Shown: positions 10,908 to 64,000, numbered from the stretch's first letter. The stretch: DNA of 64,000 nucleotides from a virus (IMGVR_UViG_3300010162_000009), one strand, 5' to 3'. Numbers and translations: made by a program. Notes: generated by a model from the sequence alone, not told the origin.

Positions 10908-11537
10908 ATGACTGTTTACGAAAAATATTTAGCGTTGAAAGACATTATAAATATAGGTGCAATAAAAATTTCACCAAAGGAGAAAATTTTCAAATTTACA
11001 TCCGGAATATCATCTCCAATATATTTTGATAATCGTTTAACATTATCATATGATGATATTCGTAGAAAAATAACTAATGGTTATTTGGAAATAATCATCA
11101 AAAATTTTATAGATGTCGAGGTGATTGCTGGTGTAGCAACCGGTGCAATTTCACAGGGAACTCTTGTTGCTGATAGACTTGGATTACCGTTTGTGTATGT
11201 ACGAAGCGGTGCAAAAGAACATGCTACCAAAAAACTTGTTGAAGGAAAAATCAAAGAAAATCAAAAAGTTGTTGTTATCGAAGATCTTATTTCAACCGGT
11301 GGTAGTTCTATAAAAGCGGTAGAAGCGTTGAGAGATGAAGGTGCAGATGTTTTGGGAGTAATCGCCGCATTTTCATATGATTTTAAAGTATCAGAAGATA
11401 TATTTGAAAAATCACAGTGTAAATTATATTCATTATTTAATTTTGAAGATTTAGTATTTGCTGTGTTGGAAGAAAAGTATATCGAAGAATCTGATGTTGA
11501 AATTTTACATAACTGGAGGGATGATCAGAAAATTTAG
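10908..11537 (+). CDS. pyrE: Orotate phosphoribosyltransferase.
   Basis: PRPP-binding motif VVVIEDLISTGGS and overall OPRT-like sequence (FTSGISSPIYFDNR). Confidence 0.85.
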   Translation: MTVYEKYLALKDIINIGAIKISPKEKIFKFTSGISSPIYFDNRLTLSYDDIRRKITNGYLEIIIKNFIDVEVIAGVATGAISQGTLVADRLGLPFVYVRSGAKEHATKKLVEGKIKENQKVVVIEDLISTGGSSIKAVEALRDEGADVLGVIAAFSYDFKVSEDIFEKSQCKLYSLFNFEDLVFAVLEEKYIEESDVEILHNWRDDQKI

Positions 11538-13006: not shown

Positions 13007-14053
13007 ATGTTATATAGAATTTTAAAACCATTATTTTTCAAATTTGACCCAGAAACCATGCACAGTTTTGTTGGTGGTTTAATGCGGTTTGCTTACTGTG
13101 TCCCACCTCTTCGGTGGTTGATACGTAAAATGTATTGTATAGAACACCCTAATTTGGTTAGGAGGTTTTGTGGAATGAAATTTTCAAATCCGGTTGGATT
13201 ATCTGCTGGATTTGATAAGAACGGAACGTTGTTCAGAGCATTTTCTATGCTCGGTTTTTCCTTTGTTGAGGTTGGAACGGTAACACCAAAAGGACAAGTT
13301 GGTAATCCCAGACCAAGGATATTTCGGATAGTAGAAGACGAAGCGTTAATCAATCGAATGGGGTTCAATAACGATGGGGTTTATGCTGCCGTTAAAAAAC
13401 TAAAAGGTAAAAGACCAAAAAATTTAATTGTTGGTGGTAATATCGGTAAAAATACCCTTACACCAAACGAACATGCCACCGATGATTATGTAAAATGTTT
13501 CCGTGAATTATATGAGTACGTAGATTATTTCACGGTAAATGTAAGTTGCCCAAATGTTGTAAATCTTAGTTCATTACAAAATATCAACTCGTTGAAGGAA
13601 ATATTAGACGAACTATATAATCTACGAAGATTTTTTATAGAAAATTATAAATGGGAACATAAACCAATTCTTCTTAAAATCTCCCCTGATATTTCAAAAG
13701 AACATTTAAATGATATTTTGGTACTTGCAAAAGAAATCGAATTAGAGGGTATTGTTGCAGCAAACACTACCACTACAAGAGATAATTTATCAGAAGATGT
13801 TTCACATATTGGTAATGGTGGATTAAGCGGAAAACCATTAACATCAAAAACGCTTGAAACCGTCAGATACATTACCAAACAAACTGGTGGACAAATGCCT
13901 ATAATAGCGGTTGGTGGTATTATAACACCGGAAGATGCTATACTTTTATTACTAGCTGGGGCAACGCTTGTACAAGTATACACAGGATTAATATATAGTG
14001 GTCCAGGTTTGGTTAAGGAGATAAATAAATGTATCTTGGATACACCTTTTTAA
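13007..14053 (+). CDS. pyrD: Dihydroorotate dehydrogenase (quinone-type, class 2-like).
   Basis: Motifs GLSAGFDKNG, NVSCPN and GGI. N-terminal extension typical of the membrane-associated class. Confidence 0.85.
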   Translation: MLYRILKPLFFKFDPETMHSFVGGLMRFAYCVPPLRWLIRKMYCIEHPNLVRRFCGMKFSNPVGLSAGFDKNGTLFRAFSMLGFSFVEVGTVTPKGQVGNPRPRIFRIVEDEALINRMGFNNDGVYAAVKKLKGKRPKNLIVGGNIGKNTLTPNEHATDDYVKCFRELYEYVDYFTVNVSCPNVVNLSSLQNINSLKEILDELYNLRRFFIENYKWEHKPILLKISPDISKEHLNDILVLAKEIELEGIVAANTTTTRDNLSEDVSHIGNGGLSGKPLTSKTLETVRYITKQTGGQMPIIAVGGIITPEDAILLLLAGATLVQVYTGLIYSGPGLVKEINKCILDTPF

Positions 14054-34668: not shown

Positions 34669-35184
34669 ATGTTGAGCATTATAGTCGCAATGGATGTGAA
34701 TAACGGTATAGGTGCGAACAACCAACTGTTATGTCATTTACCGAATGACCTAAAAAATTTCAAGGAATTAACGACTGGTAATACAGTTATCATGGGTAGG
34801 AAAACATATGAATCCTTACCCGAAAAATTCCGACCACTACCTAATAGGGAAAATGTTGTTATATCTCAAACATTAACCGAAATACCGGGTTGCACAGTTT
34901 TATCTTCTATAAAAGATGTTATAATGTATATAGCACCTCCAGGTAGAACAAAATTAACAAGTGATAAACAATATTTCGTAATAGGTGGTGGAACAATATA
35001 TGATGAATTGTTACCACTAACACAAAAATTATATATTACGAGAATTTATCACATGTTTGAAGAAGCGGATACATTTTTTCCGGAAATCAATCCTGACGAA
35101 TGGGAATTACAATCATCAGCAAGACATAAAAAAGATGAAAAACACGCATACGAATATTCCTTTGAAACGTATATCAGACTCTAA
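34669..35184 (+). CDS. folA: Dihydrofolate reductase.
   Basis: MLSIIVAMDVNNGIG..LPW-like region, IMGRKTYESLP and VIGGGTIY motifs. Start trimmed to the ATG at 34669. Confidence 0.85.
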   Translation: MLSIIVAMDVNNGIGANNQLLCHLPNDLKNFKELTTGNTVIMGRKTYESLPEKFRPLPNRENVVISQTLTEIPGCTVLSSIKDVIMYIAPPGRTKLTSDKQYFVIGGGTIYDELLPLTQKLYITRIYHMFEEADTFFPEINPDEWELQSSARHKKDEKHAYEYSFETYIRL

Positions 35185-36996: not shown

Positions 36997-37195
36997 AATA
37001 ATTAAAGACGGAAAACTCCCGAAAGAATATAAAAATGTTATTACCGTAACATGTAATAGGTGTGAGACTGTTTTTGAAGAAGAACAATCTAATTGTGAAT
37101 ATATTACAAAAATACAGGTTATGTGTACGTGTCCACATTGTCACTATAAAATTTTAGCGGAACAGAATTTTAAAAGTGTACCTTATTATGAGTGA
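36980..37195 (+). CDS. Small zinc-ribbon protein, 71 aa.
   Basis: CNRCE...CTCPHCH. Confidence 0.4.
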   Translation: MLKMSKIIKDGKLPKEYKNVITVTCNRCETVFEEEQSNCEYITKIQVMCTCPHCHYKILAEQNFKSVPYYE

Positions 37196-46200: not shown

Positions 46201-49200
46201 GAACTTTTGGATAAGGGGGGAAATATAACACATCACCCACTTTTTCTACTTCAATGTTAATATCATAAACCTCTAAATTTCCTTCACCTAAATTTTCTGG
46301 TATATATAATTTTCCTTCGTGAATATGAAATGAACTATCTCTATATGAATCTACTGGAAGTGTTACCACACGAGTTTTTTCAGTAGCAAAATCAAATATT
46401 TCAAGATTTGAACCATAACCACTTGGTATGTATAATTTTCCATTTAAAATGTTACATATAAAACGATCTGTTAAAATAGGAAGTTTTATTGTACGGATTT
46501 CTTCTGTGGTTAAATCAAAAATAACCATGTTTGTACCATTATTTTCTGGAACATATAACTTTCCATTATAAATTTTAAAAGTTTCATAGGTTATATTCGT
46601 AGGTAGTGTTACATATCGCACCTCCTCAGTAGTTAAATCAAAAATTTCAACGGTTTTATCATTCGATTCACCGCTCATCATATATAATTTTCCATCAAAA
46701 ATTTGAGATGTGTTTAACATATGTTTAACCATGGTAAGCGATACTGTGCGTGTTTCCTCTGTAGTTAAATCAAATATATCAAGACCATTATTATTACTTC
46801 GACGTATATATAACTTTCCGTTGAAAATTTGACTTGTCCTTCTAGAATTCCAACCATCAGGTAATGATACTGTGCGTGTAGTTTCAGTTACAAAATCAAA
46901 AATTTCAATAATATTCTGATTCAGACCTAACATATACAATTTATCATCATAAATTTGACTTGTTGCGCGTCCCATATCACTTGTAGGAAGTGATATGTTG
47001 TAAAATTCTTTGGTTTTTATATCAAATATATCCATTCTTGTACCCCAACCTTCAGGTATATACAACTTTTCGTTATAAATTTGACTTGTAAAACGGTTTA
47101 AAACAACAGGTATCTTGAATATTTCAGTATTATCTTTACCAATAAATGCGGTTATTTCCGGATAAGCAGGAAATACCAATTCCGTTCCATTTTTTTCTAT
47201 TGATGTGGTAATACTAAATATTTCAAGGGTGTTACCATTACCTTGTGGCATATATAACTTTCCGTTGAAAATATGACTTGTATGTCGCTGCATACTTGTA
47301 GGAAGCATTACCGTGCGAGTGGTCTCTGACACCAAATCAAAAATCTCAAGGGTGTTACCATTGTCTTGTGGTATATATAACTTTCCGTTGAAAATTTGAC
47401 TTGTAGAACGAGTCATAGATGATGTAGGAAGTGTTACCGTGTGGGTGGTTTCTGCCGTTAAATCAAAGATTTCGAGGGTTGTATTCCAATCTCCAGGTAT
47501 ATATAACTTTCCGTTATAAATTTGACTTGTACGTCGCTGCATACTTGTAGGAAGTATTACCGTGCGAGTGGTCTCTGACACCAAATCAAAAATCTCAAGG
47601 GTGTTACCATTCCATTGCGGCATATATAACTTTCCGTTGTAAATTTGACTTGTGATTCGCTCCATACTTGTAGGAAGTGCTACCGTGCGAGTAGTTTCCG
47701 TCAGAAAATCAAAAATCTCAAGGGTAGCACTACCACTTCCTAGTATATATAACTTTCCGTTGAAAATTTGGCTTGTTCTTCGCCACATATTTGTAGGAAG
47801 TGTTACCGTGCGAGTGGTCTCTGACACCAAATCAAAAATCTCAAGGGTAGCACTACCACTTCCTGGTATATATAACTTTCCGTTGAAAATTTGACTTATT
47901 AGTCGAGACATATTTGTAGTAGGAAGTGTTACTATACTTCTTTTACTTGTTAAATCAAATATTTCAATATTATTATATGTTGGTATATATAACTTTCCGT
48001 TATAAATCTGAGTTGCTGATCCCATTTCAATGGAATTTACCTCTATTGTTTCTATTTCTTCTTTAGAATATATAACCGCTGATTGTATAGAACTATCTGA
48101 TTTATTTCCTTGATCAGCGGTAGCAAACTGTGTTGTATCAATTTCCTCATAAGCAGGTAATTTAAATATAATATTAGTATCTGCAGTAGCAAGAGTTATA
48201 ATTTCAAGTGTATCATCCAAAGAAGGTGGTATATATAATTTTCCATTGTAAATTTGGCTAGTATATCTACCTATATCCGCCGGAAGTGTTTCAACATGTA
48301 CCTCTTCCGTTGCTAAATCAAATACTTCAAGTGTAGTATACCAATCTTGTGGTATATATAATTTTCCATTAAAAATTTGACTTGTGTATCGTTCAACATT
48401 AGAAAGAATAGGTAATACACGAGTAATTTCAGTGGCAAAATTAAAAATTTCAATGTTTACATTATTAGGACCTACCATATATAAATTTCCATTGTAAATT
48501 TGGCTAGTTGGTCTATCCATACTTGTTGGAAGCGTTACTGTACGAGTTGTTTCTGTAGTCAAATTAAAAATTTCAAGAGTGGTACCTCCGAATTCTGGCA
48601 TATATAATTCTCCATAGTAAATTTGACTAGTGCGTCTCTGCATACCTGTAGAAAGTGTTACTGTACGAGTTGTTTCTGTAGTTAAATCAAAAATCTCAAG
48701 GGTTGTGTCAACCCCACCCATCATATACAACTTCCCATCATAAATTTGACTCTCATATCTATTAGCTGGTTGTAGTGTTACTGTACGAGTTGTTTCTGTA
48801 GTTAAATCAAAAATCTCAAGGGTTGTTCCACTATGCTCCGGTAAATAAAGATTCCCATTATAAATTTGACTTGTAAAACGCATCATATTTGTTGGAAGTG
48901 TTACCGTGCGAGTAGTTTTTGTAGTTAAATCAAAAATATCAAGGGTATCACCGCTATCTTCTGGTATATATAATTTCCCATTATAAATTTGATTTGTACG
49001 ACGGGTCACGCTAGAAGGAAGTATTTCAGTATCAGTTATTAAATCTTCAAGTGAAATCCATTCACTGTTAGTTATTTTTTGAACAGGTTCATCACCAAGC
49101 ATTATTTCTATTTCAGGTACTTCAGGGTATTCAGGTAATTGTAATTCTGTACCAACTTTTGGGACAAATTCACCCCCAATACTTATTGTCTGAACAGCGG

Positions 49201-50020: not shown

Positions 50021-51832
50021 TTATTTGATTATTCCTAATACCTTATCAACTTTTTCAAAGATGATTTTCTTTTTATTGTCTACTGTTAATATATCGGCGT
50101 TTTCCATATATTGTCTTAAATTTGTAAAATCTTTATCCACCCAAGCACCTGGTGTTGAGGGGTCTGTGACCATATCCCAGCAAAGAAGTTCAAAATCATC
50201 TCCAACAATACCTATATTATTTTTTCCGGATTCTACTGAACCAACACCTCTTGAAGACACACCCATTTTAAGTCTATTGAAATAAATATTATTTGCAATA
50301 ATATCTCCGGGCGTGGAACAGATACCGTGTTTAACATATGCTGGTGATATTAATAATTCAAAATCACCTACCACAGTTTTTCCTTCCCACCAAAGTTTTA
50401 AAATATTCATGGAAATACCTTTGGTTGATATGATGGAACTCTCCGGGTGGTCTGAGTTATTAGTCCAGTGTGTCTTTCCATTACACATACAATACCATGT
50501 ATGATTTTTAACTTTAACACACATTACTTTACCCACATATTTTTCTTTTGTTATAGATAAATTTTTGTAAATGGATATGAATTTATTTAATGATTTATAA
50601 GTGAAAAACATATTACTACAATTTTCACCTTTTATTAATCTATCACCTATATATCTATCATATTTTCTATCTTCTTCTTTAAATGTTCCTGAATACCCTA
50701 TTTTTAATTGTATTTCATTTAAATCTAATACCAACCGTTTAGATGTTGAAAAAACATCATTTGAATTTACTCTTTTTCTACCATCACCTAAAACAAACCA
50801 ATCATATAATATGGTTAATAACTCTTTTGATAAGTTTTTTATTTCAAAAGGAATATATTTATCATAACATATACCTAATTTTGATAAGTATGTATGAAGT
50901 CGCGCATCGGTGATAAGAAATACGTTTTTTTCTCCTTCTTTACCACATTTAGTAAATGGTAAACCAAGTTCATTTAACATTGTTTCTATTTCATCAATTA
51001 CTTCTTTCTTTTTTTGGTGAATATAAATTCCATATCCTCTATTTTTTTCATTTCTTTTTGATGCGCTACCTTCTGAAAGATATATACCCATAAATGCCAT
51101 AAATGGTTTTATTGGTAATACAAGATCTTCATTTAATTGTTTTCTAAAATTTTCAGATATATTAAAGTGAGGTTCCTTATTCAATTTAGGTATAATAAAA
51201 AATTCTTCGTCAGTTTTTTTCATCCATTTTCCTTGTTTTAAAAAATGACAATGATTTTGATCTGGTATCATACTATCATACAAATCTTGTGCTGAAAAAT
51301 TTCCTTTATATTTATGGTATCTATCCCATATTGGATAATTGTGATTAGGTGTAACAAGATCGTTGATATGCCTACCTTTTATTCTAATCATATCACCATT
51401 ATGATCAAACACAGGTTTTTCTTCAATAGGATTTATTTCTATTTCCTCTGTTTCAGTGTTGAGTGTTAAAATATTTTCACCAACTTCAACATCTTCAAGT
51501 GTTTTCCAACCGGTTTCGGTTAATATCATTGTATCAGGTGTATAACATTCTCCATATGCTCTTCTTTCTCTGATTTTTACGTTATATTTTTCTACTTCTC
51601 GTTCCAATATTCTTCTAGGATATATTCTACCGTTGGCATTTGGGGTATCGCATTTTTGAAAAACAGCATGTAATACATAAGGAAATGGAATATACCATTC
51701 TTCACTTACCTTACCTTCAAATAACATCTTATCTTCTTTTGGGAGAACATATCCATCATTTTCAAATAGAAATCCGTATCCGTATTTTCCACGTTTTACC
51801 TCTTGTAAATTCTGAACATCTTTTACTTTCAT
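50021..51832 (-). CDS. Prohead core protease (T4 gp21-like) interrupted by an intein. The spliced host protein would be ~239 aa.
   Basis: Exteins: GRIYPRRILEREVEKY..RAYGE / SDHPESS...GVSSRGVGSV. These match the gp21 blocks (KRLYPKRILEKAVKDY...LGELNHP...GVSSRGLGSL) as I recall them. ATAAATAG 19 bp upstream. Confidence 0.8.
   Translation of the reverse strand: MKVKDVQNLQEVKRGKYGYGFLFENDGYVLPKEDKMLFEGKVSEEWYIPFPYVLHAVFQKCDTPNANGRIYPRRILEREVEKYNVKIRERRAYGECYTPDTMILTETGWKTLEDVEVGENILTLNTETEEIEINPIEEKPVFDHNGDMIRIKGRHINDLVTPNHNYPIWDRYHKYKGNFSAQDLYDSMIPDQNHCHFLKQGKWMKKTDEEFFIIPKLNKEPHFNISENFRKQLNEDLVLPIKPFMAFMGIYLSEGSASKRNEKNRGYGIYIHQKKKEVIDEIETMLNELGLPFTKCGKEGEKNVFLITDARLHTYLSKLGICYDKYIPFEIKNLSKELLTILYDWFVLGDGRKRVNSNDVFSTSKRLVLDLNEIQLKIGYSGTFKEEDRKYDRYIGDRLIKGENCSNMFFTYKSLNKFISIYKNLSITKEKYVGKVMCVKVKNHTWYCMCNGKTHWTNNSDHPESSIISTKGISMNILKLWWEGKTVVGDFELLISPAYVKHGICSTPGDIIANNIYFNRLKMGVSSRGVGSVESGKNNIGIVGDDFELLCWDMVTDPSTPGAWVDKDFTNLRQYMENADILTVDNKKKIIFEKVDKVLGIIK
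50456..51547 (-). mobile_element. Intein (~364 aa) with a LAGLIDADG homing-endonuclease domain, inserted between GE and SDHP of the protease.
   Basis: Block A CYTPDTMILTETG; block B TPNHNY; LAGLIDADG-like FMGIYLSEGSAS and WFVLGDGRKR; C-terminal ...THWTNN followed by a Ser +1 residue. Confidence 0.75.
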
Positions 51833-52717: not shown

Positions 52718-54622
52718 ATGTGTAATATGAAAAAGTTTTTTTTATTAAGTTTAGTGGTTTTAGTGATTTCTTTCATGGGTTGTAAACCGGAAGAGTTTCC
52801 TGAGATTATTTATGAAGACTCTGTTGTTTTATTAGACGGAGCATTGATTCTAAACAACGCACCTGTTGATGTAATGGTAACTCGAAAAAACCAGTTGATA
52901 GGTAGTAGATTAAAAGGTATGGTTGCAACCGCCAATGAATACAGGTGGAAATTGGTTGCTGAAATGGGTACATTAGCGGTAGTTGATGACCGAGATAGGA
53001 GCGGTAGAACAGTTAGAAACGCACAAGCAACTCACGTAAAGTTTTCCAGTGGAAATGGACAGGGTTCAGTGTTTGTGTCGTATAATAATAAAGGTACACC
53101 AAATATTGGTGGAGTTGTTATCTTTGATTATTTTGTAAAAGAAGGATCTATTGAATCGGTTAGCGTTGATTTAGACGCAACAAGTGTTCTTAGAATGCCC
53201 AGAGCACAAATCAATGCTGTGGATTACGACCCTGTAATGAATAGATTGTATATGGTTGGTGCCAATGAAGACACACGCACAGGATACAAAGGAGACGCAA
53301 ACCTATCATTTGTTATGGTTATGGATTTGGATCCGGGCACAGGAAAATTCATGTTGAAAGATCCTGTGTTTATGAAACAACTCACATCGTATCAAGCAAC
53401 CTCTGTTAAAAAGTTCGGTGATAAAGTATATGTTACTGTTGGTGACGGTACAAAAAGTACTCAAGGCGGTTTATATATATTTAATGAATCGGACAACTTT
53501 AAACAAGTCGGTCAAATATTGAGATTAGAACATGCAAGAAGCGTTGACGTTGATGAATCAGGCATCTATGTTTTCCAAGCAAATTCAAGTAAGGTTACAA
53601 GATATAATTTAGACGGAAGTGGTGGAACAGTAATATTCTTTGATTCAGAGAGGGCATTACAAAAAGACGCAAAGAGCGAATTACTTGTTTGGAAAGATCT
53701 TGTATTTGTTACCGAAAACGAAGCGGGTATGACCATGTTGGATAAATCCAATGGAAGAGTATTACTTCAATTGGAAAGACCAGGTGACTGTCCTGAAAAT
53801 GAGGTTATGAATAGTATTTCGATTAACTCTGATAAGAAGAGAGCAGCAAGTGGTGAATTAGTTCAATCAGATTTACTGTTAATTGCCAGCGGACAATCAG
53901 GAATGATATGGTACGACATAGTAAAAGATGAAACAGGTCAAACAAGGTTGATGGTGAAAGGTGTTAATAGTATTCTTGAAAACGAAAACAGCGTTAACTA
54001 TGTTGAATCTCGTGGAAACATCGCATTTGTTGCTGACGGTTTAGGTGGGTTGAGAGTATTATATCTGTTGGGTAAAGAAAGTGATGATAATATTTGTCCT
54101 GACGGTACAAAATTCTATACGTTCTTAAAAGACAACGGTAACGACCACGGTAATCCATATACAAGAAAGGTAGGTGATGTATTTGTTCAAGCAGAAGGTG
54201 ATAATTTGGTTGTGTATATTTTCAGTATTGCGCAATTACCAGATGGTTTCGTATATGTTGATGCTGACGGAGTTGCAAATCCAAACGTAAAAACCGTTGA
54301 TTTGAAATACGCAGGTGTTATGTTCGGACCAAGTCTGAAACACTTTGAAGATATTAACCTGTTAAGAGGTAATGGAAATATGAACAACGGTGTTATGAAC
54401 AATTATAACTATCAATATCGTGAATATATTCCTGGTGGCGTTAAATTTACATTCCCAATGGATAGCGAAGCACTTAAAAATGGAACAAATTTAATGGTTG
54501 TTTATAGCGGAAACGGAGCATGGGGTTATGGCGACCCTAACGGTCCAAGCGGTTCCACAGGAACAGGAGCACACAACAACGGACAAATTATTACACTTGG
54601 CGACATTGTTTATTGTCAATGA
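52718..54622 (+). CDS. Large lipoprotein (lipobox SFMGC), 634 aa, beta-rich; candidate virion or surface protein.
   Basis: Signal peptide plus Cys; Gly-rich C-terminus; late-type promoter motif. Confidence 0.55.
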   Translation: MCNMKKFFLLSLVVLVISFMGCKPEEFPEIIYEDSVVLLDGALILNNAPVDVMVTRKNQLIGSRLKGMVATANEYRWKLVAEMGTLAVVDDRDRSGRTVRNAQATHVKFSSGNGQGSVFVSYNNKGTPNIGGVVIFDYFVKEGSIESVSVDLDATSVLRMPRAQINAVDYDPVMNRLYMVGANEDTRTGYKGDANLSFVMVMDLDPGTGKFMLKDPVFMKQLTSYQATSVKKFGDKVYVTVGDGTKSTQGGLYIFNESDNFKQVGQILRLEHARSVDVDESGIYVFQANSSKVTRYNLDGSGGTVIFFDSERALQKDAKSELLVWKDLVFVTENEAGMTMLDKSNGRVLLQLERPGDCPENEVMNSISINSDKKRAASGELVQSDLLLIASGQSGMIWYDIVKDETGQTRLMVKGVNSILENENSVNYVESRGNIAFVADGLGGLRVLYLLGKESDDNICPDGTKFYTFLKDNGNDHGNPYTRKVGDVFVQAEGDNLVVYIFSIAQLPDGFVYVDADGVANPNVKTVDLKYAGVMFGPSLKHFEDINLLRGNGNMNNGVMNNYNYQYREYIPGGVKFTFPMDSEALKNGTNLMVVYSGNGAWGYGDPNGPSGSTGTGAHNNGQIITLGDIVYCQ

Positions 54623-54644
54623 TAGCGTTTAATACAAAAATTAG

Positions 54645-54676
54645 AACCACAGATTTTCCTCTGTGGTTTTTTTTAT
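54645..54676 (+). terminator. Rho-independent terminator (aaccacag-attttcct-ctgtggtt followed by a T8 run).
   Basis: Perfect 8-bp stem followed by a T-run. Confidence 0.7.
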
Positions 54677-54715
54677 GTATGTTTATGATAATATAAAAAT
54701 TTTAAATAAAATATA

Positions 54716-55648
54716 ATGGAACAACAATATTTGGATATGATGCGACGTATCCTCGATATGGGTGATTACAAAAGCGCAGCAAGGGAGAATTTACCGGGAA
54801 CAAAAGAGATATTTGTTCAAATGATTAGACACGATTTACAGAAAGGATTTCCGTTGCTTACAACGAGAGAAATGCCCATTAGAGGAACATTTGAAGAACT
54901 GAAATGGTTTTTGAAAGGGAGTACAGATGTTAGAGAACTTATTCGTAATAAGTGCAACTTTTGGAGTGAAGATGTGTATAAATTCAATAAGAAAGGATAT
55001 GACAAATTTCCCGATTATGATCTTTGGTTGGAAGTAATAAAAAACACTGAAACAGAATCTTCACATACGGATGCTGGTGAATTATACGGAAAACTGTGGC
55101 GAAACTTCAATGGTGATACTGACCAAATATGTAATTTAGTCAATAGGATATTGAAAGAACCAAATTCTCGTTATCAAATAGTATCGGCATGGAATCCTTC
55201 GGTAGTATCTCGTGGTTTAAGCGCATTACCTTCTTGTCATATGATATGGCAAACAAATGTAAGAGAAGGAAAATATTTGGATTTGGTTATGATGCAAAGA
55301 TCATGTGATATTCCTATCGGTGTACCGGTTAATATTGCAAGTTACGCTTTATTAATCCACATATTATGCTTAATATTACCATACTATCCTGGTGAACTTA
55401 TATGGATAGGTAACAGCGCACATATCTACGAAAATCAGTTTGAAACATGTGAAGAACAGTTAAGTAGAACACCAAGAGAATTACCACAACTTAATATAAA
55501 ACTACGTCCATACATTCAAAATACTTGGGTATCAGAAGAACTAACAGATTTTTTTGATTCATTAAGGTTTGAAGATATTGAACTTATCAATTACAATCCT
55601 CACCCAAAACTCAAATACACTTTTTCAAGTGGGTTAATCAAAAAATAA
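54716..55648 (+). CDS. thyA: Thymidylate synthase (ThyA-type).
   Basis: Active-site LPSCH; QRSCDIPIGVPVNIASYALL with the Asp and Asn typical of dUMP-specific enzymes; YGKLWR. Confidence 0.85.
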   Translation: MEQQYLDMMRRILDMGDYKSAARENLPGTKEIFVQMIRHDLQKGFPLLTTREMPIRGTFEELKWFLKGSTDVRELIRNKCNFWSEDVYKFNKKGYDKFPDYDLWLEVIKNTETESSHTDAGELYGKLWRNFNGDTDQICNLVNRILKEPNSRYQIVSAWNPSVVSRGLSALPSCHMIWQTNVREGKYLDLVMMQRSCDIPIGVPVNIASYALLIHILCLILPYYPGELIWIGNSAHIYENQFETCEEQLSRTPRELPQLNIKLRPYIQNTWVSEELTDFFDSLRFEDIELINYNPHPKLKYTFSSGLIKK

Positions 55649-55649
55649 C

Positions 55650-56126
55650 ATGTTAGAAAAGTTAACATTTAAATATCCTAAAGAATTTCCCATTAAGTTA
55701 GGAGATAGGTTTGTAGTTGGTTGCTGTTTTTGGCAACAACCCGGTTGGACAGAATCTCATCCAGGTATTGTTTTCTCACCGGTGTTACAATATCGTGAAG
55801 TAAATAGCGCAGAGAGTTTAATAGAAGATACACTTATTGATGCCGTAGTACATTCTACATTAGAGTCAGATGATGATATTATAGATGTTAATGAGAATCT
55901 TAGTTGGGCGGGAACTTCATTAAAAACATTAGAACGTAGAATTAAAAACTCCATTGAAAGTTTTAGATTGTATCCTGAAAAGTGTAAATTATTATACGAA
56001 AACAGGTATTCAGAAATAATTGTTCAAGAAGTAGAAATCATCGACATACATGATAATGAAAATGATCGTGAGGTATTAGATTGGAAAATCATTGAAGAAT
56101 TAGTTATTAAACCATATAACACATAA
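55650..56126 (+). CDS. Hypothetical protein, 158 aa.
   Basis: ORF track; ATGTTAG overlap with thyA. Confidence 0.5.
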   Translation: MLEKLTFKYPKEFPIKLGDRFVVGCCFWQQPGWTESHPGIVFSPVLQYREVNSAESLIEDTLIDAVVHSTLESDDDIIDVNENLSWAGTSLKTLERRIKNSIESFRLYPEKCKLLYENRYSEIIVQEVEIIDIHDNENDREVLDWKIIEELVIKPYNT

Positions 56127-56157
56127 AAAAAGAGAGGATTTTTTCCTCTCTTTTCAA
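56127..56157. terminator. Bidirectional terminator (aagagagga-ttttt-tcctctctt).
   Basis: Perfect 9-bp stem with flanking A and T runs between convergent genes. Confidence 0.7.
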
Positions 56158-56174
56158 TTACACATCCATCGGGA

Positions 56175-57569
56175 TTATTTTTTCTTGCGGTAGTTTCTGA
56201 TTGTTTTTTGAATTTTGTCTTGAGCAGCCGCTTCGTTTAATGAAGCACCACCAACCGCTTTTTTAGGTGAATACTCCCATAACCTTTTCATATTATCAAA
56301 ACTATTTTTTAGTTTTTCTGGGTTTTTATATTCAAGTATAAAAGATTGATTGTAGTTATCGCACTCCATTAAATATTCGTTACCTGCTTTGTCAACCATA
56401 ACAAACTTATTACCGGGTGTTTTATATTGTTCTGGAATTAAACTTTTAACATGATTTTCATTAAGGAAAACTGTTTTGTTAAATTTTAAACGTTTTATTT
56501 TGTTTTCATTTTTCTTTTCATCTCCGATACCAAGAGTATCATTAACTTTATCACCAACAGCGTCACCAACCTTTTGACCTGCTGCTGTTGAAGCGGTCAT
56601 AGCAGCGTTTGTTCCAGCGTCTACGGCGACTTGTTTTGCTATATCTTTACAACTTTGTGTACCTGCGGTTTTCGCAGCACTACCAGCGGCTGTCTTACCA
56701 GCAGTTCTTGCAGCAGTACCAGCCGCCGCTTTACCTGCTGCCGCCCTACCAGCTGCGCCAACTACCGCACCAATGACTTCATTAACTTCTTCATTGACTT
56801 CACCTTCCGCTTCGCCTTTATTTTTATTCCTATTCATTAATGCCGATGCACCTATACCAGCGGCATTAACCGCGATAGGTATAAGAGGAACAACTTCATT
56901 AAGTAACTGTGAATTCCCCCTAACCATTTTATTTTCATTCACCACCTTTTTGAATGTTGGTACCGCCAAAGAGTATTTTTTACCACTTTCGTCTACAAAA
57001 TTAATTCGAGTTTTATCCTCATTTAATCCTACAACTGTAAGTTTAATATTATTCTTTGATTCTACAAAGACATCACCTTTTTTCACTTTACTTTCGTCTG
57101 TTGAGAATTTAGGGGTTTTGGTTTGCTGTGTAATCCTAGTGTTTATTTGTGTAGTTCCCATAATATTTGCATATCCTTTATTATCATTTTGCATTTTATC
57201 CCAGAAACCTTTGTTTCCTTTTATAGAAATACCACCAGATGTTTCATCATCAATATCCGGTTGGTCTGGTGAAGATTTACCTTGAACAAGTGCTTTTACC
57301 CTATCTTGATATTTCTTGTCAATAGAATCATAATTTAAGTTCAATGCGTTTCTTCCATAGGGTTGGTTTTCTCCCCTGTAACCTTTGATTTCAGTAGAAT
57401 TACCTTCAGGAGTAGAATCTTTTATACGTTCTTCACCATCCTTCTTAGCATCTTTACTATCATTTTCATTTTCTGATCTAATATTAGTAAAAAGTTTTCC
57501 GTTTGTTGAATCACTTTCTGCTGCTTCATTAATCAGTTTTCCTAACTCTGCTAAATTTACCATAGCCAT
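56175..57569 (-). CDS. Gly/Ala-rich protein, 464 aa; permuted paralog of 23328-25145; candidate virion-internal protein.
   Basis: Shared segments with 23328-25145; ATAAATAG 30 bp upstream. Confidence 0.55.
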   Translation of the reverse strand: MAMVNLAELGKLINEAAESDSTNGKLFTNIRSENENDSKDAKKDGEERIKDSTPEGNSTEIKGYRGENQPYGRNALNLNYDSIDKKYQDRVKALVQGKSSPDQPDIDDETSGGISIKGNKGFWDKMQNDNKGYANIMGTTQINTRITQQTKTPKFSTDESKVKKGDVFVESKNNIKLTVVGLNEDKTRINFVDESGKKYSLAVPTFKKVVNENKMVRGNSQLLNEVVPLIPIAVNAAGIGASALMNRNKNKGEAEGEVNEEVNEVIGAVVGAAGRAAAGKAAAGTAARTAGKTAAGSAAKTAGTQSCKDIAKQVAVDAGTNAAMTASTAAGQKVGDAVGDKVNDTLGIGDEKKNENKIKRLKFNKTVFLNENHVKSLIPEQYKTPGNKFVMVDKAGNEYLMECDNYNQSFILEYKNPEKLKNSFDNMKRLWEYSPKKAVGGASLNEAAAQDKIQKTIRNYRKKK

Positions 57570-57598
57570 ACTCTTATTAATTTAATAATATTTTATAA

Positions 57599-57606
57599 AT
57601 AAATAG
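57599..57606 (-). promoter_or_regulatory. ATAAATAG motif upstream of 56175-57569.
   Basis: Exact motif. Confidence 0.45.
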
Positions 57607-57630
57607 TGGTTTTTTTCAATAATAGTTAAA

Positions 57631-57666
57631 AAACAAAAAAACACACCTGTAAAAACAAGTGTGTTA
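57631..57666 (-). terminator. Terminator for 57695-57983 (acacac/gtgtgt stem with a T-run on the minus strand).
   Basis: Hairpin plus an A-run on the plus strand. Confidence 0.5.
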
Positions 57667-57694
57667 GTTTTTCCGTTTAGTTAGAAATTACGGA

Positions 57695-57983
57695 TTAGGG
57701 ATTTTCATCATCATCCTCTTCGTCGTCTTCGATATCAACGTCGAATACAATTTCGTCGCTCAGAATTACTGGGCTGCTACAAGCAACTACTAAAACCTCT
57801 TTCGTGGTTGTACCACAACGGTTAGTCAGTTTGAACACGCATGGAAATTCTCCATATTCGGTAGGTTCTCCATACAACTCACCAGTTGCCGTATCTAATT
57901 GCACACCTGCGGGTAGCGGTCCTTCAACCAGTTCCCATAAACCGGTTGACCCTTTGTAAAGTATCTGTTTCCTTTCTTCCATC
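57695..57983 (-). CDS. Small Ig-like (BIG/He_PIG-type) domain protein with an acidic tail.
   Basis: LPAGVQLDTATGELYGEPTE motif. The track start at 58021 is a TTG that abuts the promoter motif, so the start was moved to the ATG at 57983 (MEERKQ). Confidence 0.45.
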
Positions 57984-58023
57984 TTACTTATTTTTTTTAT
58001 TACGTTATTATTTAATTCCAATA

Positions 58024-58031
58024 ATAAATAG
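58024..58031 (-). promoter_or_regulatory. ATAAATAG motif upstream of 57695-57983.
   Basis: Exact motif. Confidence 0.4.
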
Positions 58032-58084
58032 TAAAAAATTTTTCATAAATTACCTTATTACTAAAAAAATTAAAAATATTTTTT

Positions 58085-60421
58085 CTACATTTTTCTAATT
58101 GGTATTCTGAACACTAAATGAGTTCCGTATCCAAGTTCAGATTGAACAGTAATAGAACCACCCAACATTTCAACAATTTGTTTTGTGATATAAAGTCCCA
58201 TTCCTGTTCCACCATATCTAATTCTATCCTGTGCATTGATTTGATTAAACCTATCAAAGATAATCTTCAATTTATCTTCAGGGATACCAATACCAGTGTC
58301 TTCAACGGTGAACACTAACATATCAGATTCTATTTCATATCCAAATTTAACATATCCGCTTTCAGTAAATTTCACTGCATTTCCGATAACATTATTCAGA
58401 ATTTGACGTACCCTTGTAACATCTGAATCAATGATACATGGATAGATTGAATTGGAAGTATCAAACACGACTTCTAATCTCTTATCCTTGGTTTTGATAA
58501 AACTATTAAATGATAGTTCCATTTCCTGTAAAATGATATTAATATCAAATTCTGTATGATTTATTGAAAGACTATTGGATTCTATTTTAGCAACGTCTAC
58601 AATATCATTAATCAATTGTAAAAGTTGTTGTGTGCTGCTCCTGACAATCCTTGAATATTCCTTACGCGTTTCCGGATCAATATGGTTTGAATCAATGAAG
58701 TCAAGGAAACCAAGAATACCGTTCATAGGTGTACGTATCTCATGCGACATGTTAGTGAGGAATGAAGATTTCAATTGATTTGCTTCCTCAGCTTTCATTC
58801 TTGCTTTTATCAAATGATTTGTTTGTTCAGTAACCCTGTCTTCCAAACTATCCTTCAACTTGATAAGTTCATCATTCAAATTAAGTAATTTCTTGTTTGT
58901 GTTTCTAATCATGAATAGAAGGAACAATACTATTACAACTGCAATGACAACTATATAGATAATATATTTTCGATATAATAGTTCTTGCTTTTGTGCTGCT
59001 ATTTGCGCTCTCGCTTCAAATAGACTTTGTTCAAAAGTATATTGTGCCGTTACTTGTTGAATATTAAACTTCTCTGTTTCTGTTTTTATTGAATCATTAA
59101 TGGCGTATGCTTGTCTAAGATATTTTATGGCAACAGAGTATTTAGATTTTTCAAAATTAATATCTGATAATATATGTAGAATTTCAGATTTCTTCTGTTT
59201 TAATCCCCTACCTGTTATCAAATCCAAAGCGGTAGTAAAAATTCTATCAGCATCATTCAATTCACTTTTTGAAAAGTAATAATTTCCAAGATAGTAATAC
59301 GCATCAATCAAGTGTATAACAGAATTTGATGCGCGAGCATATTCAATAGCATTTTTATAATATCTTAATTTATCTCTATCGTAGTTACTTCTCAACCCAA
59401 GATTAATATAAATTGTTGATAGTGCAGATGATTTAGGATTATTTTCTTCATATACCCTTATCAATTCATTTAATATTTTAACTACATCACTGTTATTTTT
59501 ATAATATCCTGATATCGCAAGATTGTGCATTACCCTTGCATATTGTAAATTTTCACCAAGAGTTTTGTATATTTCAGCAGACTTGTTATAATATTTATAA
59601 ACACTATCAATCTCACCAAGACCCTTATAAACACTACCGATTAAATCATATATATCTGCTTCGTTGTGTCTATCACCAATCATTTTTGAATGTTCAACCG
59701 CTTTTTCAGCACTTTCAATAGCGTGTTGTGTGTCACTTATGTACGTTAGTATTATCAATGAAATTTTATATCCCGCAATAATATTTTCAGTATTACCAAT
59801 TTCTTCCCATATCAAAATTGCTCTTCTTATCGCTTCAAAAGATTCATATAAACGACCCTGATAACGATAAACAAGTGATAAATTGTAATAATTACGAGCA
59901 AGACATTCCATCTCACCAAGTTTCATACATATATTTATTGAAGCATTAAACATTTCTATCGCCTCATTGTATTCACCTTTCAAATAGTGAATCGTACCGG
60001 TTGTTCTATACAAATCAGAAATACCCCTTTCAAAATTTATAACGTATGCAAGAGTTAATCCGCGTTGAAGAACATCCATCGCCTCAGAATATCTGCGTTC
60101 TACAATTAATTTACGTGCCGAATCACCAGACGCAATTACACGCATCTCATCCTCTGTATCCGTTGGTCTCGATATATTTTCATTAGACTTATTAATAAGA
60201 GGGAAAATAGAAATACCCCTATCCTTACTGATAATATAACCAACAGTAGAACCAACCCGGTCAGTATATTTAATGGCACTATATTCGTTTTGTTCAATTT
60301 GATTATTACTTAAACTACTATAATCTAATAGAACATCTAATTCACTATTAGATTGTGATATCGCAGGTAATAGATTGAACAATACTAATATAACTACCAA
60401 AACTATGTGTTTTTTTGTCAT
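58085..60421 (-). CDS. Sensor histidine kinase with an N-terminal signal peptide, TPR-repeat sensor region, one TM segment, HisKA and HATPase_c domains; no receiver domain.
   Basis: MSHEIRTPMNGI H-box; N/G1/G2 boxes (NAVKFT, DTGIGI, GGTGMGL); TPR-like repeats in the N-terminal 460 aa; ATAAATAG 19 bp upstream. Confidence 0.85.
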   Translation of the reverse strand: MTKKHIVLVVILVLFNLLPAISQSNSELDVLLDYSSLSNNQIEQNEYSAIKYTDRVGSTVGYIISKDRGISIFPLINKSNENISRPTDTEDEMRVIASGDSARKLIVERRYSEAMDVLQRGLTLAYVINFERGISDLYRTTGTIHYLKGEYNEAIEMFNASINICMKLGEMECLARNYYNLSLVYRYQGRLYESFEAIRRAILIWEEIGNTENIIAGYKISLIILTYISDTQHAIESAEKAVEHSKMIGDRHNEADIYDLIGSVYKGLGEIDSVYKYYNKSAEIYKTLGENLQYARVMHNLAISGYYKNNSDVVKILNELIRVYEENNPKSSALSTIYINLGLRSNYDRDKLRYYKNAIEYARASNSVIHLIDAYYYLGNYYFSKSELNDADRIFTTALDLITGRGLKQKKSEILHILSDINFEKSKYSVAIKYLRQAYAINDSIKTETEKFNIQQVTAQYTFEQSLFEARAQIAAQKQELLYRKYIIYIVVIAVVIVLFLLFMIRNTNKKLLNLNDELIKLKDSLEDRVTEQTNHLIKARMKAEEANQLKSSFLTNMSHEIRTPMNGILGFLDFIDSNHIDPETRKEYSRIVRSSTQQLLQLINDIVDVAKIESNSLSINHTEFDINIILQEMELSFNSFIKTKDKRLEVVFDTSNSIYPCIIDSDVTRVRQILNNVIGNAVKFTESGYVKFGYEIESDMLVFTVEDTGIGIPEDKLKIIFDRFNQINAQDRIRYGGTGMGLYITKQIVEMLGGSITVQSELGYGTHLVFRIPIRKM

Positions 60422-60439
60422 AATGTCGTTTTTTTTAAT

Positions 60440-60447
60440 ATAAATAG
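60440..60447 (-). promoter_or_regulatory. ATAAATAG motif upstream of the histidine kinase gene.
   Basis: Exact motif. Confidence 0.45.
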
Positions 60448-60519
60448 GTCTTAATTTTTAAACAAAAAATCAATTATCTTTTCAAATAATTGATTTATAA
60501 ACATATAAATAATATAAAA

Positions 60520-60560
60520 AATCATAAAAAAATACCATCCAAATTTTTTTGAATGGTATT
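60520..60560 (-). terminator. Rho-independent terminator downstream of 60799-62040 (ataccat/atggtat stem with a T-run on the minus strand).
   Basis: Hairpin plus an A-run on the plus strand. Confidence 0.55.
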
Positions 60561-60798
60561 TTAATAAAAGTGTATTTTACTTAAACATAGTCGAAAAAAT
60601 ATGAAGTCCTTTTAATAACACATCCTTTCAGACATTCAGAGGTCTCTTTTCAAATACACTTATTAATTTACTTATGATTTTCCGCAAAAATACCCCTTGG
60701 GTGTTTTTTTGGAAATTGACGCTTCAACGGGTTCGTAACCTCTTCCCTCCACGTCCTCTTCCCCTCTCATCGAAGGTGTTTTATATTTTGAATTGACC

Positions 60799-62040
60799 TT
60801 ACTTCTTTTGAGATGCTTCTTTGGCAATGTCCATCAACATTTTCAAACCTACGGCATCCATAGCGGTATTTACATTACTACCACTTCCACCACCGCCCAA
60901 ATACATTACACCCGGAACAATAGGAACTTGAATCCCAGCAATATTTTTTGAAACAACGTCTGCTATTCTGATCTCCATTTCCATCCGTTGTTGCGGGGTT
61001 AAACCAGCCTGTACTAATAGACGGTTTGCTTCCGCTTCTGCACGTTTTTCTTGGATAATCTTATCAGCAACGAATTTAGCTTGATCTGCTTCTAATCTAG
61101 CAACGTCTCTTGCTTGTTCCGCTTTTGTTACTTCTACCGCTTTGATTGCTTCCTGTTCCCACCTTCTTGTGGCAGCAGTCGCTTTACCTTGTTCTTCCGC
61201 CTTAATAGCGTTTTGACGAGCTTCCATTGACTGCGCCAGGGCTGTTTGAATTTGCATATTTGCTTGCTGTTGAGCAGCAATTTGGTTAATTACAGTTTCG
61301 TCATAACGGATATTTGAAATAGCAAGTTGACTAATTTCAAGTCCGTAATAACTAAACGGTGATACTTCTTGTCGTGCCAAACCACCGGGTGCATTTTCGT
61401 CTCTGATAACATCAGCAACCCTAACAACTTTTTCTTGTTGAGTTAATTCGTCAAATACACGCTGTTCGGTTGTTCGGGTACGATACACACCGTTGTTTAA
61501 CTGGTCGGTTATATACAGAATAAGGTCATTCTTCTTTGCTGCGTAAGATTCAAACGCTGACATCAAAGGACCTGATGCAAATACCGCCTTGACCGTTGTT
61601 GGTCTAATTAGATCATTCATTAGTCGGTTCATTCCCGCATAATCCGTATGTATCCTTTGCAGATACTGCGTTTCCAGCGGTAACTTAACTCGCAAACTAC
61701 CTGATATGCGACCCTTACTACCGTCATTGAATACGATAGGGATATCAAGGTCTATGGGTTTTTCACCACCCTCACCTTCTTCATCGGAGAACCATAACTG
61801 GCGTGTTTTGTCATATTCGGTAATTCTACCAAACAACTGCCATTGAAACCCCGGTGACACCCAATACGCCATTTTCCCTGTGAAAGGGTATTGGTTAACT
61901 ACTATTTTCTCATTATTCACATCTTCACCCATCTTGGCGAATGCAAAAATAAAGAAAACTCCTATTAGCAACGCTAATACTACATACACTTGCTTTTTTG
62001 TAATTTCTAACATTTTAATACAATTTTTAAGGTTTAACAA
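60799..62040 (-). CDS. SPFH/band-7 family protein (HflK/HflC-like) with an N-terminal TM anchor.
   Basis: N-terminal TM segment; central band-7 region; C-terminal Ala/Gln/Glu-rich coiled coil (QQQANMQIQTALAQSMEARQ...). Confidence 0.65.
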   Translation of the reverse strand: MLNLKNCIKMLEITKKQVYVVLALLIGVFFIFAFAKMGEDVNNEKIVVNQYPFTGKMAYWVSPGFQWQLFGRITEYDKTRQLWFSDEEGEGGEKPIDLDIPIVFNDGSKGRISGSLRVKLPLETQYLQRIHTDYAGMNRLMNDLIRPTTVKAVFASGPLMSAFESYAAKKNDLILYITDQLNNGVYRTRTTEQRVFDELTQQEKVVRVADVIRDENAPGGLARQEVSPFSYYGLEISQLAISNIRYDETVINQIAAQQQANMQIQTALAQSMEARQNAIKAEEQGKATAATRRWEQEAIKAVEVTKAEQARDVARLEADQAKFVADKIIQEKRAEAEANRLLVQAGLTPQQRMEMEIRIADVVSKNIAGIQVPIVPGVMYLGGGGSGSNVNTAMDAVGLKMLMDIAKEASQKK

Positions 62041-62282
62041 ACTAAAATATAAAGGACTTTAACTCTTTCCAAACCACAAGACAAATGGTAAAAACCATTT
62101 TGCACTAACACCGAGCTTATGCCCGATTCTTATCACACCTATTAGGTGTAATATCAGTGTAATATAATACACTACGATTCCGATTGTTACTAATATTGCT
62201 AATAACTTCCACATAACTTTAAAATTTTAAGATTTGACATATTATATAATGTATACTAAATTCGTTTCCAAATTTACACTTT

Positions 62283-62450
62283 TTATTCATTACGAATAAA
62301 TTCCGTTTCTTCCCACCACCAATCAATAAGACCATGAAGATATTCTTGTGCTGTTTCTTCTATTTCTTCTTTTGTGGCATCGTCTTCTACTTCAAACCAA
62401 TCTTCTTCAGTCGTTCTTCCAAGTCTGACTGTTACTCTAACTGTTTTCAT
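62283..62450 (-). CDS. Small acidic Trp-rich protein (~55 aa, ...LIDWWWEETE...).
   Basis: Manual ORF overlapping the upstream stop by 14 nt. Confidence 0.25.
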   Translation of the reverse strand: MKTVRVTVRLGRTTEEDWFEVEDDATKEEIEETAQEYLHGLIDWWWEETEFIRNE

Positions 62451-63390
62451 TCTTTTTAATTTTTTTAATTTCTTCTATTAATGGAAACAACACTTCCATT
62501 AAAGGAATATTTTCAATATTATGTAACTCTATTGGAAAAAAACCGGATTTTAGGGGTTTATCAAGATTTACAAATCCTCCCATCCAATCATTTTGGAAAC
62601 CGGTCATTACCAACCCTGTTTTTGTTGAAAGCGGTAACACTCTTTTAGATTGTTCGTATGACCAACCCTGTGTACTAACAAGATTGGTATAATGAATTCT
62701 ACTTTGAGAAAGAGAATGTAAAAATTCAAGTTTTGCCATTTCTTCCGTATATGGTACAATCTTTCCAACATAACTTTGATGCCTTTTATGAAGGTCTTTA
62801 CAATCACAATCTTCTTCTTGAATATCTAATCCCGAAATAACATATGAAATATTATTCGTATTTGATTTTTCATGTGCAAATGAAAACGCTCGGTGTTTCA
62901 TGAAATTCATTGCTGTAATCATATCACAAACAAAGTAGACTGATATTCTTGGTTCATGATATTGTCCTGGTACACAAAGATATTGTAAATCCTCTGTCCA
63001 TTTGTTTTCAATTATCACACGATAGTTTGTTGAAATAGAATATACGTGTGGAGATACATCGTCATGGTAGTCGACAATGGTGTAAGGATTGCCCCAATAC
63101 TTATCCACATCACAATCATCTTCCTGTGTTATATCAAGATAAACTGCACCATGTTCTAACATAGAAAAATCATTTTTGTTAATCAACATATTAACAAATT
63201 TATCAGCACCACCATAGGGGTCGTAACAACACATTCTACCAACTATTTCGATTTCCTTGAATATGTTATTTAACAAAATATCGTTACCAACGTCACGAGG
63301 GTCTGGTCCATTAGTGACATCCCACGTCTTTATGTGTGGTAAAAATATCTGTTCTGTTAGAACTTTTGCACTTGGTTTTTCAACTTTCAT
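62437..63390 (-). CDS. Divergent ThyX-like (flavin-dependent thymidylate synthase fold) protein, 317 aa.
   Basis: Segments LEHGAVY, FM-KHR-AFSFAHEKS and EQSKRVLPLSTKTGLV parallel the ThyX FEH, RHR-x7-S and ARxxLP..T.T blocks. The canonical S-x-R-Y Arg is absent and RHR reads KHR. Confidence 0.45.
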   Translation of the reverse strand: MKVEKPSAKVLTEQIFLPHIKTWDVTNGPDPRDVGNDILLNNIFKEIEIVGRMCCYDPYGGADKFVNMLINKNDFSMLEHGAVYLDITQEDDCDVDKYWGNPYTIVDYHDDVSPHVYSISTNYRVIIENKWTEDLQYLCVPGQYHEPRISVYFVCDMITAMNFMKHRAFSFAHEKSNTNNISYVISGLDIQEEDCDCKDLHKRHQSYVGKIVPYTEEMAKLEFLHSLSQSRIHYTNLVSTQGWSYEQSKRVLPLSTKTGLVMTGFQNDWMGGFVNLDKPLKSGFFPIELHNIENIPLMEVLFPLIEEIKKIKKNENS

Positions 63391-63408
63391 CTTCTTATTT
63401 TTTTTGTT

Positions 63409-63951
63409 TTAATAAAATTTTAATAATTTTTTCTGATCGAGATGAAAAGAATTTTCTGAAAATATCATCCCTCTATCCTTCTTTACTTTGGTTATCACTT
63501 TTCCTATTTTTGATTCCAAGCGTTTTATACGAAAATCACATAGTTTTAATATTTGATTCAAATCAAATTCAATATCAAATTGAGATAACCATTGAATCAT
63601 GTTATTATATCTTGGGTCCGATTTAATTGATTTATCGGAAAGTCTTTTATATGCTATTCTCAATGTTTGCAACAATATACCTGCTTGCGTATCTTTTGAT
63701 TTTTCAAACAAAATATTATTATCTACTTCTATCAATGATTGATACATTCCATTTACCATAGCATCTTGTTCATGGTTTGTAGCATAAAATATGAGCGATA
63801 CAAATCGAATTAATGGATTTTTACTATTGTAACCAAGAACACCAACCTTATAATACAAATCAGTACTATGTGTTTTTTTATTTCCATTTAAATTTGGTTT
63901 AAAACCCCCACCTTTCAGGTGGGAATCATCATTATTAATATTATTATTCAT
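63409..63951 (-). CDS. Hypothetical protein, 180 aa; probably co-transcribed with the ThyX-like gene.
   Basis: ORF track; 18-bp gap to the downstream gene. Confidence 0.5.
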   Translation of the reverse strand: MNNNINNDDSHLKGGGFKPNLNGNKKTHSTDLYYKVGVLGYNSKNPLIRFVSLIFYATNHEQDAMVNGMYQSLIEVDNNILFEKSKDTQAGILLQTLRIAYKRLSDKSIKSDPRYNNMIQWLSQFDIEFDLNQILKLCDFRIKRLESKIGKVITKVKKDRGMIFSENSFHLDQKKLLKFY

Positions 63952-64000
63952 TTTTAAAAACTAAACTATTTGTATTATAAAATTTGTCTAACTTATTGAC

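Follow-up and report, generated by a model that had tools for sequence, protein, structure and literature searches.

What does a ThyX-like protein do in a phage that already encodes ThyA? The two enzymes are largely mutually exclusive, and genomes with both have been seen as a transition stage (PMC2826268; PMC5954106). A 64,000-nucleotide stretch of the viral genome IMGVR_UViG_3300010162_000009 (hereafter the window) carries a ThyA thymidylate synthase together with a divergent ThyX-fold protein. The original prediction, made from the sequence of the window, had described this pair alongside dihydrofolate reductase (DHFR), pyrD and pyrE, and all five genes were confirmed. We favor, with a probability of roughly 0.62, the reading in which the open reading frame (ORF) for the second protein derives from a crAss-type ThyX made redundant by a working T4-type ThyA-DHFR pair, has a decayed active site and is now a pseudoenzyme or a late-stage relic. 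The ORF lies on the minus strand, which corrects the original prediction:

62437..63390, minus strand: ThyX-fold ORF of 317 amino acids (aa), placed by alignment and fold model in the ThyX clade of crAss-type phages as a degenerate member

The proposal that this protein aligns with ThyX held for both fold and clade. An AlphaFold2 model built on 80 relatives had a mean predicted local distance difference test score (pLDDT) of 85, and every listed top match in Foldseek was ThyX or PolB, with low global TM-scores; the protein is thus predicted to belong to the ThyX fold. In a tblastn search, crAss001 gp54 and some 80 further phage records matched at 32-37% identity (E 1e-33 to 1e-36), while a large protein search gave 210 matches, with PF02511 in all 120 listed. 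Homology to 119 members of the crAss-type clade runs over the full length (E 3e-39 to 1e-25), and the clade-specific blocks are common to them. With crAss001 gp54, for example, the ThyX-like protein has in common the blocks LEHG, TNYRV, HE.R, HR.FSF, LP..KT and TGF..DW as well as a longer N-terminal part, which greatly exceeds that of the Thermotoga maritima ThyX and is a feature of the whole clade.

Within this clade the protein stands apart. The relatives share a mean of 57% identity among themselves, and the ThyX-like ORF shares 33-40%, typically about 36%, with all of them. On Pfam Thy1 it scored 24.0 bits, just below the cut-off of 24.8, whereas ten relatives scored 75-124 bits (121.6 for crAss001 gp54, 75-124 for nine other clade members), and on the TIGR02170 equivalog it reached 22 bits against a cut-off of 87.9, so neither family threshold (PF02511, TIGR02170) was attained. 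HMMER, run exhaustively over 1.84 billion representatives, found nothing nearer than 37% identity, a scan of IMG/VR for nearer relatives with the same altered site returned matches at 25% identity only, and the 90% identity cluster of the ORF has a single member. By sequence, the ThyX-like ORF is an extreme outlier within the ThyX clade of crAss-like phages. The distance from canonical ThyX enzymes (the comparators being T. maritima TM0449, Mycobacterium tuberculosis Rv2754c and PBCV-1 A674R) is larger still, with 18% identity to TM0449, than which the ORF is about 100 aa longer and whose deoxyuridine monophosphate (dUMP)-binding and catalytic residues are replaced.

To describe these replacements, we compared the ThyX-like ORF with 119 relatives and with TM0449, whose sequence is identical to that of PDB 1KQ4. 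In the M. tuberculosis (Mtb) enzyme, dUMP is contacted by R87, R95, S105, R107 and R199, with Y108 as the lid (PMC6514825). R78 steadies the reduced flavin, and S88, R90 and Y91 are catalytic, with mutation of Y91 making flavin oxidation 1000-fold slower (PMC11940539). The positions compare as follows:

R78 (TM0449): kept in 119/119 relatives; K in the ThyX-like ORF
S88 (TM0449): kept in 119/119 relatives; K in the ThyX-like ORF
R90 (TM0449): kept in 118/119 relatives; N in the ThyX-like ORF
Y91 (TM0449): kept in 113/119 relatives; T in the ThyX-like ORF
R147 (TM0449), which we take to be a dUMP-phosphate arginine from the neighboring subunit: kept in 115/119 relatives; K in the ThyX-like ORF
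R174 (TM0449): kept in 119/119 relatives; E in the ThyX-like ORF, a charge reversal
His of AHPQ: kept in 117/119 relatives; N in the ThyX-like ORF

R80, by contrast with these positions, is retained as R in the ThyX-like ORF and kept in 113-119 of the 119 relatives. The ThyX motif is absent, reading KHRAFSFAHEKSNT where the clade has RHRxFSFAQESTRY, and further along KRVLP stands for AR.VLP and FFPIEL...IENI for FFxLR...AHPQ. The equivalent of Mtb R87, a family arginine, is M157, and the ThyX-like ORF retains none of the dUMP-phosphate arginines contributed by neighboring subunits (R147 and R174 of TM0449; R87 of Mtb). Inspection of the dUMP and folate sites, which the original prediction had suggested as a check, thus found the dUMP-contact residues changed. 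The missing arginine of SxRY that it had pointed out is indeed missing, but the loss is far wider (R78K, S88K, R90N, Y91T, R147K, R174E, and AHPQ to IENI). It is also concentrated at functional positions: 7 of the 8 ligand or catalytic positions named in the literature are changed, compared to 26 of the 77 remaining conserved columns (p = 0.005, Fisher's test). Overall, of 85 columns with a conservation of 90% or more among the relatives, 52 are kept in the ThyX-like ORF; for the others the median is 84, and none falls below 64. Since the lost residues are those for dUMP binding and catalysis, thymidylate synthase activity of the ThyX-like ORF is very unlikely, and the view that it is not an ordinary synthase of deoxythymidine monophosphate (dTMP) stands.

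The active-site loop has also been reshaped:

62745..62852, minus strand: remodeled active-site-loop region, residues about 180-215, with an AlphaFold2 pLDDT of 77-84

The insertion here had been put at about 45 aa, which proved too large. Compared to T. maritima ThyX there are about 24 extra residues after the motif, of which about 16-18, including CDC...HKRH, are unique to the ThyX-like ORF; the remainder, like the long N-terminal part, are common to the crAss-type clade. The loop segment had no significant match in any relative. We considered CDC...HKRH as a zinc knuckle and found no support for it, the stretch being absent from P0121, a relative described below.

If the altered site had been rebuilt for another purpose, relatives with the same loss might be expected to agree on the new residues. 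The two best HMMER matches to the ThyX-like ORF, P0121 and P0122, are both degenerate. P0121 is encoded on a 12.6-kb contig, whose accession falls in the same European Nucleotide Archive (ENA) range and whose matches to the window are confined to weak ones between small proteins. It is the sole other protein with the same loss at the catalytic positions, so the shared loss rests on two sequences. The two have in common the motifs CDVD.Y, YHDDV.PHVY, FSF.H[ED] and I[ST]YVI. Their replacements at the old active-site positions differ, with K in the ThyX-like ORF and S in P0121 at position 78, K and F at 88, N and G at 90, T and D at 91, and E and S at 174, a difference that speaks against a newly conserved active site. 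Likewise, the segments of the former motifs are the least conserved between them (7-27% identity), while most of residues 46-150 are 47-73% identical. Together, these findings show a pattern that, at the level of sequence, is one of relaxed constraint on the old active site and not of a rebuilt pocket. A third protein, P0266, has the YHDD..PH.Y segment in common with the ThyX-like ORF and keeps the full ThyX motif, QQAR.VLP and LR..AHPQ. By these sequence markers, the ThyX-like ORF, P0121 and P0266 form one subclade, and since the motifs of P0266 are intact, the loss would postdate the separation from an ancestor that was intact like P0266. Segment 91-120, highly conserved between the ThyX-like ORF and P0121, was considered as a new functional site and rejected; the intact-motif P0266 shares it, making it a subclade marker. 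A profile of the ThyX-like ORF and P0121 revealed a gap from 589 to 246 bits with no further members between.

Degenerate ThyX copies recur sporadically across the crAss-type phage clade. P0122, encoded at 10001-10885 on the 105-kb crAss-like contigs L009/L010, carries S88D, R90N, Y91N and R147K and keeps RHR and R174; its gene lies two genes upstream of one with a weak radical-SAM match. Other degenerate ThyX-like proteins (P0189, P0194, P0221 and P0260) are found on other phage contigs.

On the other hand, the ThyA of the window and its DHFR are intact:

54716..55648, plus strand: thyA, T4-type folate-dependent thymidylate synthase (PF00303, 252 bits; TIGR03284, 227.8 bits against a cut-off of 108.35)
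34669..35184, plus strand: folA, dihydrofolate reductase (PF00186, 185.9 bits over profile positions 1-159/159; phrog_316)

The best solved relative of the thyA product is the T4 thymidylate synthase 1TIS (9.6e-56). Aligned to it, the protein shows ALPSCHM with the nucleophilic Cys, QRSCD, VNIASY with the Asn that specifies uracil, and AHIYEN with its H/Y, so that the Cys active site and the Asp/Asn pair of the original prediction are borne out. ThyA membership is supported by the family cut-offs, the Cys, R166/D169/N177 (E. coli numbering) and the 3'-OH-binding H/Y. Deviations are a Tyr at the second Arg of SRR (the dimer-partner pair) and a C-terminus 5 residues longer than usual. In the dCMP (deoxycytidine monophosphate) hydroxymethylase of the T4 gp42 type, which has the ThyA fold, the residue that specifies the base (E. 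coli N177) is Asp. The protein of 54716-55648 has Asn at this position (VNIASY) and does not fit such an identity.

DHFR is required only where the thymidylate synthase reaction yields dihydrofolate (DHF), and its presence therefore fits reductive methylation better than hydroxymethylation. In a related 367-kb phage, IMGVR_UViG_3300010049_000009 (L013), a thyA 72% identical to that of the window has folA (54% identical to the window folA) directly upstream, and no ThyX was found within 10 kb of this folA-thyA pair. T4 has the same arrangement, with frd directly upstream of td. The window resembles T4 frd-td in its T4-type ThyA and in having a DHFR, and differs in that folA and thyA lie 20 kb apart. 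Because of the arrangement in the 367-kb phage, we consider ThyA-DHFR, on sequence evidence, to be probably the working dTMP pathway of the phage. Among 224 jumbo phages, thymidylate synthase correlates with DHFR and anticorrelates with ThyX (PMC7824862).

Our favored explanation can be set out as follows. ThyA would methylate dUMP with methylene-tetrahydrofolate and DHFR would reduce the resulting DHF, which is the classical dTMP route. The ThyX-like ORF would descend from the flavin-dependent ThyX of crAss-like phages. Two non-homologous enzymes may have come together in one genome, in either order, leaving the ThyX copy redundant and its active site free from constraint. Loss of the dUMP-binding arginines, the Arg that stabilizes the reduced flavin, and the Ser, Arg and Tyr of the active-site loop would have left no thymidylate synthase function. 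With an intact ORF and a predicted fold that is still that of ThyX, the protein could serve in a non-catalytic role or be a late-stage relic. The analysis shows the fold (in a model), the clade membership, the residue losses, the outlier divergence and the intact ThyA and DHFR, whereas the missing activity, the scenario of redundancy and any role still kept are what we infer from the sequences. A precedent for a redundant ThyX beside a working ThyA is the atypical ThyX of Corynebacterium glutamicum (PDB 3GE9/3FNN), the top Foldseek match, whose genome also encodes ThyA and which, by the titles of its PDB entries, thymidylate synthesis does not require. Motif loss in the window protein is far greater than in any canonical structure aligned.

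Several observations weigh against this explanation. All 317 codons of the ORF have stayed open in a genome of 33% GC, where 6.7% of amino-acid-changing substitutions would make a stop, and for 60-80 excess replacements the chance of this under neutrality is about 0.004-0.016. Since such openness is improbable under neutrality and would not be predicted for a pure relic, some selection still seems to act. H166, R167, S170 and the HE.R block, part of the flavin adenine dinucleotide (FAD) site, are kept in both the ThyX-like ORF and P0121, and flavin binding, hence some chemistry, is possible by sequence. Four other contigs carry the gene at 99.98-100% identity in DNA, leaving no variation for a ratio of nonsynonymous to synonymous rates (dN/dS). 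Finally, the analysis covered 64 kb of about 269 kb.

These points bear differently on the rival readings. The ThyX-like ORF might be a neofunctionalized ThyX-fold flavoenzyme that kept flavin and took another substrate (a pyrimidine base or nucleoside, DNA or RNA) for methyl, hydroxymethyl or other chemistry. Its confident fold, the openness that drift would rarely preserve, the partial FAD-site residues and the R-to-K changes at 78 and 147, which preserve positive charge, all speak for such a protein, as does the precedent of PolB (4P5A), the uridine monophosphate (UMP)/dUMP C5-methylase of polyoxin biosynthesis and a ThyX paralogue with altered substrate that is among our fold matches (PMC5954106). 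However, PolB still methylates nucleotide monophosphates (PMC5954106), whereas the ThyX-like ORF is without the phosphate-binding arginines, and the residues lost are those that would hold any nucleotide monophosphate and the reduced flavin. The old active-site segments are, moreover, just 7-27% identical between the only two members, the loop insertion is absent from P0121, no conserved subfamily emerges from the 1.84 billion representatives, and no kinase, transferase or other hypermodification gene was found around the ThyX-like ORF. The lost pocket residues, the differing P0121 and the want of flanking companion genes also speak against the different pyrimidine modification that the original prediction had suggested for the protein. 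No sign of another activity acting on pyrimidines emerged, and we regard a neofunctionalized enzyme as unlikely, if the most serious of the rivals. We hold it similarly doubtful that the ThyX-like ORF and P0121 constitute a small unrecognized ThyX-fold family, with part of the flavin site kept for another flavin reaction or a regulatory role; if true, this would be the first ThyX-derived function other than thymidylate synthase in a virus.

At the other extreme, the gene could be a pure pseudogene-like relic without function, recently inactivated and not yet deleted or interrupted. The loss of catalytic residues, the long branch, the redundancy with ThyA-DHFR and the scattered, independently degenerate proteins elsewhere (P0122, P0189, P0194, P0221 and P0260) would all fit. 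Yet there is no stop codon or frameshift in spite of heavy divergence, phage genomes usually delete useless DNA fast, and a second lineage with the same loss, P0121, likewise keeps a full-length ORF. The gene is also tightly packed against its downstream neighbor:

62283..62450, minus strand: ORF of 55 aa, sharing 14 nt with the 3' end of the ThyX-like gene (phrog_1997, 5e-07; DUF7167, 18.5 bits, below cut-off)

A functionless relic thus seems to us a less probable outcome than a flavoenzyme with a new substrate. Far less credible than either is a ThyX still active through unusual residues, with which the phage, like mycobacteria, would have two thymidylate synthases. In its favor are the ThyX fold, the kept equivalents of H79, R80 and S83, two R-to-K replacements and an Arg that directly follows the R147 position; set against these are the replacement of every dUMP-contact residue named in PMC6514825 and of R78, S88, R90 and Y91 (PMC11940539), the reversal of charge at R174 and the 22 bits on TIGR02170. 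The 14-nt overlap suggests that the 55-aa ORF is co-transcribed with the ThyX-like gene. This ORF had no similarity to crAss001 gp53, the small gene downstream of crAss001 thyX.

Under the decayed-ThyX reading, the window would offer a snapshot, in a virus, of a textbook non-homologous replacement, with one partner visibly dismantled and the other intact together with its DHFR. It also calls for caution in annotation, in that a phage 'Thy1' match alone does not mean flavin-dependent thymidylate synthesis. If a role is retained, the protein would be a ThyX pseudoenzyme or a repurposed ThyX fold; our literature search turned up no such case, and found no papers on ThyX in crAss-like phages, nor on ThyX as a 'pseudoenzyme'.

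The remaining pyrimidine genes of the window lie at a distance from thyA:

13007..14053, plus strand: pyrD, class-2 (quinone-dependent) dihydroorotate dehydrogenase (PF01180, 262.6 bits; NF003652, 433.4 bits against a cut-off of 267)
10908..11537, plus strand: pyrE, orotate phosphoribosyltransferase (TIGR00336, 130.7 bits against a cut-off of 106.8; PF00156)

The original prediction had spoken of an unusually complete pyrimidine module. While pyrD, pyrE, folA and thyA are all present, thyA is 40-50 kb from pyrD/pyrE, and the genes are dispersed over 45 kb, so they form no physical module. Matches to pyrD occur in just 14 of 50,697 phage records, several of which appear to be fragmentary or doubtful phage entries, and a phage with class-2 pyrD and pyrE may be rarer than the ThyA/ThyX pairing itself.

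The window matches one end of the 268,981-bp metagenomic contig ena:ERZ27257297:k141_148294, with 11.6 kb of retrieved overlap 100% identical in reverse complement. Its gene content identifies the source as a jumbo myovirus-like phage: the portal is of T4 type (188 bits), a primase and a prohead-protease domain are encoded, there is a weak match, below cut-off, to the T4 gp19 tail-tube family, and DnaK, Hsp20 and two DNA methyltransferases (see below) are also present. Megablast of window positions 54000-64000 against the 50,697 phage records gave no nucleotide-level match.

Between thyA and the ThyX-like gene, 58085-60421 (minus strand) encodes a 778-aa sensor histidine kinase that combines TPR repeats and a hydrophobic stretch predicted to span the membrane with HisKA and HATPase_c; its surroundings showed no response regulator. 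At 60799-62040 (minus strand) is an SPFH/Band_7 protein, 72% identical to that at 54-806 of a different phage contig (L006, 62.7 kb), which carries PolIII-alpha, RecA and an intact-motif ThyX (P0004). This likeness hints at gene exchange between phages co-occurring in overlapping metagenomic samples. A 603-aa protein at 50021-51832 (minus strand) has a C-terminal prohead-protease domain, and its residues 91-166 weakly match phrog_85, labeled 'thymidylate synthase'; the match probably reflects how a fusion family was labeled, rather than a third thymidylate synthase. Next to it, a 2256-aa ORF at 43235-50005 (minus strand) has no matches but short, repeated ones to uncharacterized PHROGs.

Two N6/N4 DNA methyltransferases are encoded at 37176-38120 (plus strand) and 40087-40875 (minus strand), the second being 78% identical to that at 6423-7196 of L013, the 367-kb IMG/VR contig, where it lies near the adjacent folA and thyA. 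A group-1 glycosyltransferase at 29546-30622 (plus strand) lies near a large tail-fiber-like protein with an endosialidase-chaperone domain (25623-28742), and we draw no link from it to DNA modification. The phage also encodes a full-length DnaK/Hsp70 (817 bits; 21275-23239, plus strand) and an Hsp20 small heat-shock protein (19676-20188, plus strand). Directly beyond window position 64000 is an HNH/RRXRR endonuclease gene (L002 2355-3698, L004 98-1441 and L005 107-1450); the 269-kb contig ends at it, which suggests that the assembly broke off at a variable or mobile element.

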